DNA of 64,000 bases from positions 21,374,955-21,438,954 of the forward strand of contig OZ316893.1 of NCBI GenBank assembly GCA_973895155.1. The letters are read 5' to 3'. Positions 55,201 to 61,278 of the stretch are shown piece by piece. This stretch comes from Marsupella aquatica (Eukaryota; Plantae; Marchantiophyta). The notes below the pieces were generated by a model. The model was not told the origin of the DNA, made no database searches, and saw only the letters and a list, made by a program, of their open reading frames with translations. How positions within the stretch are numbered: position 1 is the first letter of the stretch; each line of letters opens with the position of its first letter. The position numbers and the translations under genes are program-made.

Positions 55201-58200
55201 ATGGTGGATTCAGGGGAGCCTGTGCCAATCTACACGTCCCTGGAGGATGTGTATGGACAAGGGGTGGGCCTGGTGGCCGCTGAATCTCGGTACAAGAATT
55301 TGAGGCAAAAGTTCCTGGACATTTACGAGCACGAGCCACAGTTATATGCGCGGGCGCCAGGTTTTTATCCATCCTTGATGACTTCATTCACCCCTGTTCG
55401 CTAGGAGAAAGCTTGGTACTGTGGAACTCCATCTGGATCACTGCATGACTTGAAGACAATCAGATGCCAAGTTTCTCAGGGAACTGGTTAATTAGATTGT
55501 AAAAGGCTTTGGTCGGACCGAAAGGTGTGAGAAGACACTTGGAGGACTGGACAGGGGGGTGGATCCATGGTATATTGCAATCTGCGATTGAATGATGGAC
55601 GTATAGAAGTGCTACAAAAATGAGGGGATGCTGAAATTCAGCTAGGGAGCATTCAGGCATGATTTTGAGAAGGAATCTGAAGCCAACTGACTTCTCTGAT
55701 TCTACTATATCTTACTTTGCATCTATTGTGGCCAAAGTTAGCTGCCACCCTCCAGATGGTTTTTGATCAGGATAAGGTTCTCATATTGTTCTCCTAGAAT
55801 TGAATAATGGACAAGCAAAATGTATGGAAGATTGTAGGGGATACTGAATGTCATGGAGGTTGCAGTCTGGCGTGAATTGTGGAATAATTTACAACAAACC
55901 GATTTCCGGATTGCTTGAAGTGAATTTATCCATGAAAGGGTCTGTGCATAGGCTTTAGCCATCAACAATGTGCATAGTGTAGAATATTACGGAGCCACTG
56001 ACCGCTGTCTAAAACTATGCGCAGGGCGAGTAAATTTGATTGGTGAGCACATCGACTACGAAGGATATTCTGTTTTGCCCATGGCTCTGCTGCACGACAC
56101 AATTGTGGCCATTCGCACAGCAGAGCCTAGTGAAAAGCCTCCAAAGTTGCGTGTTGCTAATGTTCAATCGGACAAGTATCGTGACTGTTGCTTTGCAGCA
56201 GATCCTTCCCAGGTGCTGCAACTTGCCTTTCTACTCAAATCTGGACTGATAGTGCCCGTCGAGGTGTAATTGTGTGGATTCCAACTAGAAACTAGTTGCC
56301 AGCATTGCTCTTTGAAGTCATTGATTGCAGAAGTTTTTTGGCTGAACAGGTTTCTGTCACTTGACTTCACAGGAAGTGAACAGGGCCAACCATGTCTGGG
56401 CAAACTACTTCCTCTGCGGGTATTGTTGGTCAACATTGTTCCCCACATTTGATGCTATCTTCAGAGATTAATTATTTTTCACATTACTCCAATGGAAGTC
56501 ATCATAGACGCTGAATTATATGTGCCCAGGTACAAAGGGGTCTTCGAACACCTCCAGGCGAAAGGATTAGCCATCGGAAGTCCTGTTGGACTAGATGTCT
56601 TGGTTGAAGGCAATGTCCCAGTAGGTGAGCTTGTTTCTTTCAAGGTTTTTCAAAGTAAATTTATTCAGTTTAGAATATTGAATTCTTCACTAGGTATCTG
56701 TATTGTTGATTGCACAGAAGGTACTTAAGTTGGTTTTTGCAAGAACATTTGCAAACTTGAAAGAATATAGGTGGGGCGGGTAGAAAGCGAATGGGATATT
56801 ATATGGGAGGACAACTGAACACTCGTTAAACTCAGCACAGCTGCGGCCTTACGCAATCTGTTCCGAATCATTTCATTTCGTATTGCGCTCCGAAGCAGTG
56901 GAACACGATTACCTTTGTTTAGGAATTGACAGTGCAGAGCATCTTCTACTGACTTGCTCTCAAAACATCGTTTCAAATTGTCCCCATTGGAACTTTGTGT
57001 TCAGCATTAACAAATTCATGTCTCGAGTGTCCAGTGTGTTATACGTTAAGCCAACAAAGGTTTCAATGAGAGTTTGCATGCAGGTGCTGGTGTATCGAGT
57101 TCAGCAGCCATAGTTGTCTCATCCGCAATCGCTGTAATGGCGGCTTTTGGTCTCAAATTTTCTAAGGTGTTCCCTCTGTTCCTCCGTCTCTTTCCATGAC
57201 TTAATCACACAGGGGCAGGAGTTTCCAGTTCATCAGCGCTGGTATGCTCATCTGTTGTTGCCATAGTTGGGCTACACAACTTGGAGTTTTCCAAGGTATA
57301 TGATGCTTCATGACATGGTCCCTGTGCAGATAGTCATGTGTGGGTAGCCTCCTTAACTATGCATCTTTTTGCCCATCTCTGTTAGAAGAGAGAAATGCAT
57401 TGCTTCAGAACTAGATACCATGGTCTGAAGATGGAAGGCCCATTATCTAATCGTCTGCCCTACTTCGAGGGGACTTTTGTGGCAGCAAGAAGTGTCCGAG
57501 TTTGCATGCACTTGTGAACGCCATATCGGTACGCAGTCCGGAGGAATGGACCAGGTAGGATTCTTACCCATTACTGGCTGATCTAATTGTACAGGATGCG
57601 TGTCGTTACACGATGTGATACGTATTATGATCCATGTTCTTTGTGTTGGGAACGGTAAAACAATATTGCGATTACCAATTTTGCAAATCAGTAGGTTACA
57701 GAAGTCTTCGCAACTCTGTTGTTTCTCTCCTGTTCAGGAAAAAATTGTGAGCCAGGATTTTGGATTGAAGTTTAATAGCTCTCAGGCTACAAAGTAATCT
57801 CCATTGCAAGGCTGTAGTACAACAAGGAGAAAGATTAAAGTTACGACGGAGTGTTTGGAGCTGTCTTCAGTCTTGACACATGATTATCAAGGCAGGATCT
57901 AATATGTTGGGAAGGTATCTGATGGAAGACTTGTATTCAGGTCCTGAGTGTGGCGACTACAACTTATTAACTTTGATATTGCCAACGTGATTATGGCAGG
58001 CTATATCAGTGATGGCAAAGAAGGGAGTTGCGAAGCTCATTGATTTCGACCCCATTCGAGCAAGTGATGTTGTTTTGCCTTCGAAAGGTGCTTTCGTCAT
58101 AGCAAACTCTTTGACTGTCTCGAGCAAAGCTGTCACTGCTGCCACGAACTACAACAACCGGGTTGTCGAGTGTCGTCTTGCTGCAGTAATCTCCTTACTT

Positions 58201-60374
58201 TTCTGTAGTCATAATATTTTTGAAATGGATCATCAGTTTCGAATTTGGAGATTATGTCCGACCTCGAGAGACTTTCTACTGTGGCTAGTGCTTATGACGT
58301 GCGTCCATATCTTACATTTCAGTCCACAATTTAGTCTTCGCAAAAGTCTCTCCTTCCATATTGCTTGTGAGTTTCCTTCAAATGTTGAAAATTAGGTTTA
58401 ATATGAAGAGCGGTCTCTGGTGGTCTTTTAGATGGTGCTAGCAGTGAAGTTGGGAATGCCGCTCCATGAAGTGCAAACAGTTCAAAATCTCTCGAATGTG
58501 GAAGGCCTGTGTGTTGCTTATGCTGATAATCATGGTGCGTCATCGCCCATTCTCGCTGTTGAGGTACAGTCACGCTCCTTCTGAATTTGGCCTTCTCTTT
58601 TTATATCTAGAAGCGAGTCTAAGCGTTTGGCCTTACATTTGTTTCATTCCTTGAGGAGAGGACCTCATAACACAGCTGTCATTGAATGTAAGTGTTTATT
58701 TTTTCTGCCAGAGGTAGTCTTGTCAGGTAAAGCCACTCCTTTTGCATCACTTTTTAGTGTCCCTTTCATGGCTATCTCCAATTTGTTGAACTGCATGTTA
58801 AGCAACCAGTAACTGAATTCATCCCATGTTCGAAGTCTAGCTACACAAAAACAAGCGTACAGAAGTGACTTCCATAACGCTGCCAGACGTTGACTTGATA
58901 GCTATTTAATGGACTCCAATTGCATCCATGCAGGAGTACCTCCATGAAGAACCTTATACGGCAGAAGAAATCGAAGGAATCGTTCAACAAAGTTTGCAAT
59001 CAATTATGGCAAATTCACCAAGCTCACTGGCGGTTCTTGCTGCTGCAAAGACCTTCAAGCTCTCACAGGTATTTCATTTTCACCCGGGGAGCTATCCCTC
59101 TGACAAGCTTTACACCACTGTTACAATTGAGGGGAACAAAGTGACAGGGTTCCTGTGGGTAGTGCTTTTTGATTCGTGTGTCCATTTTTGGGGCAGGATA
59201 ACTAGACAAGGATGTTTCATATCAGTTGTCAACGAAGTCGTCACAGTTTCTGACATTGTCTGTAACATTCACAATATACTGTGTCTGTGGTGTTAATTTG
59301 CAGAGAGCGAAGCATGTGTACACTGAAGCCCAGCGAGTGTACAAGTTTCGGGAGGCTGTTCTTTCTTCTGCAGAGTCTGTACCTTTCTCCTTCTAATTTA
59401 TTGATAAGAATTAAAGCCATTGATTTATTTTCTTCCAAGATTTTGTCTAGTCTGTTTCCATCCAATTACATGCAAGGTTTGCTAGGATTTATGCTTGTGG
59501 CGGTCATAGGGATTTACAAGTTTTCAATATCTTGAAAATCCGGATTGCGGGCGATTAAGAAGATGGATGTCTCTGATTTGAGATGATACTGTTTGTTCAG
59601 TGATGACAAGAAGCTTCAACAACTTGGAAACCTCATGGATGAGAGTCATGCAAGTTGCAGTAAATTATATGAGTGCAGGTTTGTTCGATTCTCTTCTTTA
59701 CCTCTCATAGAGCGAAGCAAAGTTTACGTTCTCTCCTGGACCCAGGCTTCTTTTCACTGTTTCAGTAAGTTGGCGTCTTGTAGTTCTCTTACCCTGTATG
59801 TCAGGTTGGAGTTCATCTGAAACGAGAGTGCGAGATGTTAATCTAATTTCTACGCTTATTCAAATGGCCTCCCTCAGCTGTCCCGAATTGGAGGAACTTG
59901 TGAAAGTCTGTCGAACCAGTGGAGCCATTGGAGCTCGGCTCACAGGTGCTGGCTGGGGAGGATGTGTCGTTTCCCTCGTGGAGGAAAGTTCGGTTTCTGG
60001 ATTCATAAGTTCTTTAAAGGTAATATTTCATGGTCTTAGATTCGAGCAGCGCATGTTTTTGGGGTTCTCTGAGTGACTTCAGAAAAGGTCACGACGCATA
60101 CTTCATTGGTTGAATAAAACCTGACATTTTCCATGAGGAACTAGCTCGAAGTTGGATGGAAGAAAGTGATGATGTGAGACTACAGAGAAGGGAGGCTTTT
60201 CCTGAAACCATTGCTTCCTATTTTTCTAACATGCAATATGGTGGGACAATTTCGCAGGATGAATTCTATCAATCAAGAATTGATAAACAACTGATAAAGT
60301 CTGAAGATCTGGATTCGTATGTGTTCGCATCCAAACCTTCCGGTGGTGCTGCCGTATTGAAGATCCAATTCTAG
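55201..60374 (+). CDS. GALK: Galactokinase (GHMP kinase family) with a duplicated exon 5
   Basis: Approximate exons 55201-55360, 56025-56212, 56373-56418, 56530-56623, [57084-57166 or 57213-57295], 57486-57554, 58000-58185, 58432-58563, 58934-59068, 59304-~59374, 59601-59678, 59878-60019, 60258-60374. Motifs [117 protein letters not shown]. Confidence 0.97.
57084..57166 (+). other. GALK exon 5A (83 nt), candidate mutually exclusive exon
   Basis: catgcag|GT GCT GGT GTA TCG AGT TCA GCA GCC...TCT AAG|gtgttc, encoding [28 protein letters not shown]. Confidence 0.9.
57213..57295 (+). other. GALK exon 5B (83 nt), candidate mutually exclusive exon
   Basis: cacacag|GG GCA GGA GTT TCC AGT TCA TCA GCG...TCC AAG|gtatat, encoding [28 protein letters not shown]. 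Confidence 0.88.
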
Positions 60375-61278
60375 GTTAGTGGAGACCTTAGTTCAAGATT
60401 TGACGGAGTGGGTGCTTCGATCTCTTGTTCGATTTGACGAGTTCAAATTACTGTTTTCCGTTTCCCCCCAAAATTATATTGTAGGAAGTGGACAGCGTGT
60501 ATCAGGGTAGAAGAAGTTATTTTGCTCATCAATTCATGTAACGTTGCTGGATCACCTTTTCCACTGTTCCAAAAGTAGCAGCATGGGGATTTGTAGATTA
60601 TTTCACACTAATGAAGTCACATTATTTGCAAATGCACTTTCAACGTTACTCTGGCTAGGCAAGTCAATGTCACAGACGCAGTGTCGTACCTCTCAAGCGG
60701 CCCAACTCGTCTGTCATATAAGGGACAATGGTGATAGTCCCAACTTATATTATCTTGACCTCACCAAAATAGCCGCTTTCAAGCAGTTCGTTGAACACTT
60801 TTCTATGAATGTTCACAGTTTAACAGTATACTATGATCAATATCTGGGTGACAAATTTCCAAAGTATTGCTGTATATTAAACGAGGTATTCAAGAAACTT
60901 TGGCAAACTACCAATTGAAACGAAGAATATGCTAAATTCGCCACATGAAACATATTCGATTGTCCTCAAGATTTACTCGAATCATTTCATAGGACAAGAT
61001 AAAAGCAATTGTATTGGTATAGCTGTCAGCTATATCATCAACTAAAAAGTCATATCTTCAATTCTTTTGCTACCAGTTGATATAACGAACATTTGTCGCA
61101 TACTTCTTGAAGTTGGAGATGCAAAGATGAGCATCGCCGGAGTTTAGCTGCTTCTCTGTTGCTTAGACTCATGTGCTCAAACTCTCGTCCGCTACTCGGT
61201 ACGTAGCCACCAAGGGGTCATGTGGACATGGCTGTGAGTTGGTTGTTACTGAGGGTCACATTTCGGAAGACAAGTAGC

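Follow-up and report, generated by a model that had tools for sequence, protein, structure and literature searches.

Two old tandem copies of exon 5, very probably spliced in a mutually exclusive manner, in a galactokinase gene of the liverwort Marsupella aquatica

According to our analysis, the galactokinase gene in a 64,000-nucleotide stretch of Marsupella aquatica DNA (the window, from whose first letter positions are counted unless a locus is named) carries two adjacent copies of exon 5, 5A and 5B, and this duplication is real and old. We regard their mutually exclusive use in M. aquatica as very probable: the gene would splice in either 5A or 5B and yield two galactokinases of full length, distinct only where the ATP loop ends and in the following helix. 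Taken whole, the explanation that we prefer, namely, one gene, two old copies of exon 5, either-or splicing, and isoforms that differ on the ATP side, is deemed reasonably probable.

Table 1. Features of the galactokinase gene in the window, and exon-pair loci of algal type from metagenome contigs
Feature	Position	Strand	Description
Galactokinase gene (GALK2/Gal1-type GHMP kinase)	55201..60375	+	13 coding exons per isoform, 500 aa; all introns AG/GT
Constant exon 4	56530..56624	+	Ends with Pro-x of motif II and base 1 of a split Gly codon; donor TAG/GTGAGC (slash, exon end)
Exon 5A	57084..57166	+	83 nt; motif II loop and next helix; Ala8, Ala15; donor AAG/GTGTTC, weak-looking
Spacer intron	57167..57212	+	46 nt, rich in pyrimidines; TGA in frame at 57197; YTRA resembling a branch point, 38 nt from the 5' splice site
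Exon 5B	57213..57295	+	83 nt, copy two; Ser8, Val15; donor AAG/GTATAT
Constant exon 6	57486..57554	+	Phase 0; carries the ERHIG...GGMDQ stretch, including the presumed catalytic Asp
Trebouxia-like loci			Spacer 220-251 nt; best match Trebouxia, 98% on exon 7
Elliptochloris-like loci			Spacer 297-298 nt; best match Elliptochloris
Stichococcus-like loci			Spacers 67 nt and 55-56 nt; best matches Stichococcus-like proteins
Chlorella-like locus			Spacer 99 nt; best match Chlorella

Isoform A is identical at 455 of 500 positions (91%) to the annotated Calypogeia fissa protein P0001, on which PF10509, PF00288, and PF08544 are found, i.e., the galactokinase N-terminal signature and the GHMP N and C domains. 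The best solved relatives of the enzyme, by sequence as well as by fold, are human GALK2 (2A2C; sequence E value of 1.2e-104, fold E value of 3.1e-47), which ranks first on both counts, and yeast Gal1 (2AJ4). Exons 5A and 5B both start in phase 1 and end in phase 0, with AG before and GT after them, and the remaining 11 introns measure 110 to 664 nt. An earlier sequence-only reading had described two 83-nt exons with equal phases, intact AG/GT sites, and a 46-nt spacer, all of which we find again, and the peptides it quoted are right. It had placed the end of exon 4 at 56623, which is actually 56624, so that the junctions are 56624>57084 and 56624>57213. Of motif II, the Pro is encoded by exon 4, and an intron interrupts the codon of the first Gly.

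The two copies encode the same residue at 15 of 27 whole codons, 10 of which have changed synonymously and 5 of which are identical; the remaining 12 are altered. Nonsynonymous divergence (pN) is 0.31, and synonymous sites are saturated (pS 0.77). Aligned without gaps, 5A and 5B reach a BLOSUM62 score of 73, whereas the runner-up in the window, out of 127,834 positions in six frames, scores 25, so their likeness is not due to chance. A duplication introduced by the assembly was discarded because of the saturation of synonymous sites and because the pair is present in other contigs and species.

Inclusion of 5A alone or of 5B alone gives a protein of 500 amino acids. When both are included, a TAG is met at 57264 (codon 209); when both are skipped, a TGA is met at 57515 (codon 174); and retention of the spacer, although in frame (83 + 46 = 129 nt), leads to the TGA at 57197 (codon 202). 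The frameshift on joint inclusion and the stop within the retained spacer had both been predicted correctly. Many introns lie downstream of these premature stops, and by the established rules of nonsense-mediated decay, RNAs that contain both exons, neither exon, or the spacer would be removed. A reading of the spacer as an exitron or retained intron was rejected because of its in-frame TGA. Adjacent homologous copies, equal phases, canonical sites, and unproductive joint inclusion or skipping, which are among the marks of homologous mutually exclusive exons, are all present. Across all relatives that have the pair, the exons are 83, 86, 89, or 92 nt long, i.e., always 3n+2, and therefore joint inclusion or joint skipping breaks the frame everywhere. 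Frame control is the universal feature of the pair and steric exclusion appears not to be, with spacers that range from 46 to 298 nt.

The threshold for steric blocking known from animal work, of the alpha-tropomyosin type, is about 50 nt. Measured to the upstream 5' splice site, the branch points, which are candidates recognized by sequence, lie at 38 nt in the liverwort and at 48 to 49 nt in Sphagnum. Blocking is plausible in the liverwort, where the spacer would be too short for splicing and 5A could not be joined to 5B, and may perhaps operate in Sphagnum. As a general mechanism it was rejected, since spacers reach 99 to 298 nt in the Chlorella-, Trebouxia-, and Elliptochloris-like loci. 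In both the liverwort and Sphagnum, the donor of 5A (GTGTTC and GTTGCC, respectively) is weak-looking beside that of 5B (GTATAT and GTACTC). No conserved element was found in the spacer, the likeness between the liverwort and Sphagnum spacers being reached by 252 of 2,000 shuffles, and the flanking introns of these two have nothing significant in common. Nor did a search of 56625-57485 for complementary docking/selector sequences give a convincing pair, the best being 10 bp. The mutually exclusive layout put forward by the sequence-only reading is supported by the annotated isoform pairs, tandem loci, pN below pS, and spliced B-type products of Trebouxia and Physcomitrium set out below, but its steric part, which fits the 46-nt spacer of the liverwort, is apparently not the conserved mechanism.

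The search for both exons in relatives located the pair in Ceratodon and Selaginella (as annotation), in Sphagnum-like DNA, and in trebouxiophyte algae. In Ceratodon purpureus, annotated isoforms of the same locus in two strains (KC19_10G123600, P0019/P0146; M758_10G119200, P0143/P0145) differ at 15 positions, all in the exon, and in Selaginella moellendorffii, the annotated isoforms X1 and X2 on two contigs (P0023/P0148 and P0150/P0149) differ at 12, again all in the exon; in both species, these are annotated gene models obtained from cluster look-ups. Among the 15 members listed of the Sphagnum cluster (23 read), 6 have the B exon, 4 have the A exon, and 5 are fragments lacking the motif. 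The Physcomitrium cluster holds the B type only, with one form present on 76 Logan contigs, the longest of which measures 2,924 nt. In Ceratodon, another gene, KC19_7G173000, has the A exon only. It is possible that Physcomitrium, with B only, and this A-only gene (P0275, P0276, and P0009 together) represent a pair resolved after gene duplication. A search restricted by region, with the B exon of Sphagnum as the query, yielded 3 proteins from 14 candidates and nothing new.

Throughout the liverwort, the mosses, and the lycophyte, the order is A and then B, and each exon keeps its own signature, Ala8/Ala15 in four of four A exons and Ser8/Val15 in five of five B exons. That the signatures are kept apart in these lineages points to selection on two different protein sequences rather than on any working copy. 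By leave-one-out scores, land exons are nearest to their own class in other species (A, 4/4; B, 4/4), and the five land B exons form one clade with support of 83/89, which, on 27 columns, is below the level starred by the tool. Since the B exons of liverwort, mosses, and lycophyte cluster together, the land-plant pair probably goes back to a single event in the common ancestor of land plants or earlier. This ancestor lived about 450 to 500 million years ago.

The comparison with the plant galactokinase of AtGALK type gives a single form: seed-plant-type proteins carry one A-like exon sequence, with Ala8 in 90 of 91 proteins whose loop has the GSG form, most of them from named seed plants. Protein sequences from a fern, Psilotum, Spirogloea, Chara, and Klebsormidium are A-like or nearly so. 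From proteins, in which an unannotated B exon would not show, we infer that seed plants retained only one A-like exon. Ser8 is also seen where only one exon type is annotated, namely, in genes of Riccia, Marchantia (MARPO_0046s0013), and Picocystis. Of the two galactokinase paralogs of Marchantia (P0008/P0137 and P0011/P0014), one has Ala8 and one has Ser8, and both have Ala15; the A/B difference has possibly been divided here between duplicate genes.

Selection was assessed exon by exon, as had been suggested for this locus, and pN is below pS for both 5A and 5B in those pairs of relatives that have enough changes, counts in close pairs being small. Between the metagenome loci L017 and L026, pN is 0.02 against a pS of 0.36 for A and 0.10 against 0.37 for B; between the window and Sphagnum, the values are 0.20 against 0.60 for A and 0.27 against 1.0 (saturated) for B. 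These last values bear on the reading of 5B as a silent relic in M. aquatica, with 5A alone in use. Such a reading would agree with the annotation of C. fissa, where both proteins (P0001 and P0121) are modeled with 5A only, but 5B has an intact frame, intact splice sites, the full B signature, and a pN below the saturated pS relative to the Sphagnum B exon, and for these reasons we deem it very unlikely. A further argument against it comes from a close relative, here called organism B (run X3, record 57000-57583), which has six differences in total: none in 5A, one synonymous change in 5B, four in the 46 nt of the spacer, and one in exon 6. The two annotated gene copies of C. fissa, for their part, lie on different long contigs and are 12 residues apart. 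The same run shows 0 substitutions in 618 nt of the introns on either side of the pair (56625-56968, 57000-57083, and 57296-57485), compared with 9 in 320 nt in the next intron; in this one pair of genomes, the unchanged introns may hold conserved splicing elements.

When contigs from metagenomes were scanned for a single motif copy, 36 loci came up, and at 27 of them (16 distinct sequences) a tandem pair is present, each copy behind an AG. These 27 are every intron-bearing locus of the green lineage, the count of 36 also including the intronless high-GC loci L004, L005, L007, L012, L013, L027, and L029 and the single-copy loci L019 and L023. Five of the paired loci are Sphagnum-like, with 83-nt exons and a spacer of 76 to 77 nt. 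The other 22 are intron-rich loci of five trebouxiophyte groups (Table 1), with A exons of 86 nt and B exons of 86, 89, or 92 nt. At L006:1067-1101, the second copy agrees with L024 over 35 nt before turning into unrelated sequence, which is probably due to mis-assembly or a chimeric contig.

Products with either exon were found for Trebouxia as intronless full-length open reading frames on Logan contigs of 2 to 3 kb, one of B type (P0168) and several of A type (P0247-P0250); since the genomic gene is intron-rich, these must be spliced products. P0168 and P0248 differ at 14 positions within the exon and at 4 elsewhere, the A and B products coming from different runs and strains. The algal gene models P0171, P0251, and P0255 (Trebouxia and Elliptochloris among them) join both exons in frame, and we read them as prediction artefacts. 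In Trebouxia, the final 60 nt of the spacer (L003:2535-2594, - strand; also in L011, L030, and L032) are strongly conserved and G+C-rich, and fold as a hairpin of about -20 to -25 kcal/mol, a value computed without a shuffle control. Gene predictors take part of this spacer end as coding and join both exons in doing so.

Ala8 is followed by Ser8 in four of the five algal groups, the Chlorella-like locus having Ala8 in both exons and Ser9 in the second. At this locus (L018:2449-2719, - strand), the second exon, with its Ala8-Ser9, falls in with A-like exons, a hint that a duplication took place separately or more than once. Land and algal B exons are separate in the exon tree, five algal B rows come together (93/86), and the Chlorella B exon stands among A-like rows. 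Approximately unbiased (AU) tests gave p-AU values of 0.263 for one clade of all B exons, 0.184 for one clade of all land exons, and 0.279 for one clade of algal B exons, so that neither the all-B nor the all-land clade is rejected. Algal B exons are nearer than algal A exons to land B exons in only two of five groups. The intron after exon 5 (window 57483-57488, compared with L003, L009, L018, and L026) lies one codon earlier in land plants, in both copies: land plants have an 83-nt exon and a Gln in exon 6, algae have 86 nt, and introns nearby are otherwise at matching positions. We interpret this offset as a 3-nt intron slide or a codon shift. If it preceded the land-plant duplication, one event suffices, whereas two are required if the pair was already present. 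On balance, we lean toward parallel duplications in algae and land plants; a single origin is somewhat less probable yet a serious candidate.

What is swapped is the last part of motif II plus the helix behind it. Motifs I and III are encoded by constant exons, as is the Asp of GGMDQ in exon 6, which we take, from established knowledge of GHMP kinases, to be catalytic. As described in the available part of the source (PMC10910542), motif II of GHMP kinases is the ATP-binding loop, acceptor binding being the task of motifs I and III. In a model of the Sphagnum B isoform (50-row alignment, pLDDT 90.7), the exon spans residues 167-194, with a loop at 163-171 and a helix at 172-187; folding of the A isoform from its single sequence reached a pLDDT of only 35.3. 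As the sugar-binding motifs and the catalytic Asp are constant, a change in the handling of ATP/Mg or in stability is the best guess, and we predict, with modest preference, that the A/B difference lies there rather than in the sugar bound. The change of sugar specificity suggested earlier is less favored, because motif I, motif III, and the catalytic Asp are all outside the exon. Most A/B differences are spread along the helix, where single-exon galactokinases vary too. The presence of Ser8 in genes of a single type, and the apparent sufficiency of B alone in Physcomitrium, speak against a strong functional effect. The literature that we searched contains no paper on residue-level contacts of the motif II loop and none that ties Ser8 or Val15 to kinetics.

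A specificity switch, with 5A giving a galactokinase and 5B a kinase of N-acetylgalactosamine or another sugar, would fit the residue at position 8, which is Ser in human GALK2 (a GalNAc kinase; 2A2C) as in 5B and Ala in yeast Gal1 (2AJ4) as in 5A, as well as the fit of the B-isoform model to 2A2C above other structures and the repetition of the Ala/Ser order in most algal groups. The whole plant protein, the A form included, is however nearest to GALK2, so that this match is not specific to B; the acceptor-binding motifs, as far as the accessible part of PMC10910542 describes them, and the catalytic Asp belong to exons shared by both isoforms; and the B-only protein of Physcomitrium is annotated as its galactokinase. 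We consider a switch of this kind improbable.

The possibility that both exons are used but give nearly equivalent proteins, the pair being a regulatory device in which the splice choice tunes output or in which tissues prefer one exon, draws on the frameshift geometry as the sole universal feature and on the lineages that seem to manage with one type (seed-plant proteins, the Physcomitrium cluster, and the Marchantia paralogs). It is at odds with the fact that liverwort, mosses, and lycophyte all preserve separate signatures for A and B, and we regard it as rather improbable.

A third possibility takes 5B for a sensor or a form of low activity, one that, like yeast Gal3, would bind galactose and ATP and signal rather than turn over. 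Yeast Gal1 and Gal3 (PMC5089864; PDB 2AJ4, 3V2U) are likewise two proteins of the galactokinase family whose functions differ through loop residues, although, as far as the consulted sections of that source go, they come from gene duplication and a two-residue deletion and not from splicing. In our alignment, Gal3 lacks two residues of the motif II loop, B departs from A at the site altered in Gal3, and, according to the same sections, putting the Ser-Ala dipeptide back into Gal3 weakly restores activity (PMC5089864). Against this, 5B carries a substitution and not a deletion, both exons being of full length relative to Gal1 and GALK2; active human GALK2 carries the identical Ser; and the B-only products of Physcomitrium argue for activity. 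We give the sensing form very little credence. Position 8 of GALK2 and Gal1 and the role of the loop in deciding between Gal1 and Gal3 activity, as reported in the available text (PMC5089864), nevertheless keep both the switch of specificity and the sensing form alive beside the preferred change on the ATP side.

Mutually exclusive exons are, to our knowledge, common in animals and very rare in plants; a figure for their rarity in plants was not found in the literature. Homologous mutually exclusive exons are present in animal ketohexokinase (KHK-A/KHK-C). They are also present in animal pyruvate kinase (PKM1/PKM2), according to the accessible portion of PMC11464654. Like these, the galactokinase gene has, in a kinase of sugar metabolism, two similar adjacent exons that are used alternatively and have long been conserved; unlike them, it belongs to green plants and algae, has the GHMP fold, swaps the ATP loop itself, and possibly evolved the pair twice. 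In the green lineage, exons 4 and 5 of Volvox carteri cyn23, of 106 nt each and differing in 13 residues, are two equal-length exons that are mutually exclusive by RT-PCR; cyn23, however, encodes a cyclophilin, and the available part of the report mentions no conservation beyond Volvox (PMC4378016). Plant mutually exclusive exons that alter a protein are also described for Arabidopsis FLM/MAF1, in which the second MAF1 exon is a recent cryptic exon of one clade (PMC3266260), and for Picea DAL19, with alternative first and last exons, i.e., a terminal swap (PMC6243048); going by the accessible sections of these two papers, neither is an internal homologous pair kept across land plants.

In the mostly open literature that we covered, no published description of the galactokinase exon pair was found, and genome-wide splicing tables of mosses, Selaginella, and algae may list the event; both isoforms already stand, unremarked, in the public annotations of Ceratodon and Selaginella. 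Gene models miss or garble the event, with A only in C. fissa and both exons fused in the Trebouxia and Elliptochloris models.

Judged on sequence comparison, the galactokinase pair of plants and algae is a real and ancient homologous mutually exclusive pair, unusual for its lineage, its depth, and its possible convergence. Whether plant alternative splicing makes conserved and functionally distinct proteins is debated, and the pair bears on this question: its two signatures are held in liverwort, mosses, and lycophyte, it recurs in trebouxiophytes, it is seemingly reduced to a single exon in seed plants, and it is perhaps divided between paralogs in Marchantia. The A and B isoforms differ by only 12 to 15 residues, which makes their comparison cheap. 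A farther-reaching proposal, which we hold to be doubtful, is that the pair arose once before the split of chlorophytes and land plants, or twice in parallel with Ala upstream and Ser downstream, and that B does another job (another sugar or Gal3-like sensing) that was lost in seed plants. If true, the pair would be among the oldest, or convergently repeated, protein-changing splice switches in green plants, and a distinct job of B would mean an unknown branch of sugar salvage or signaling in early land plants and lichen-type algae.
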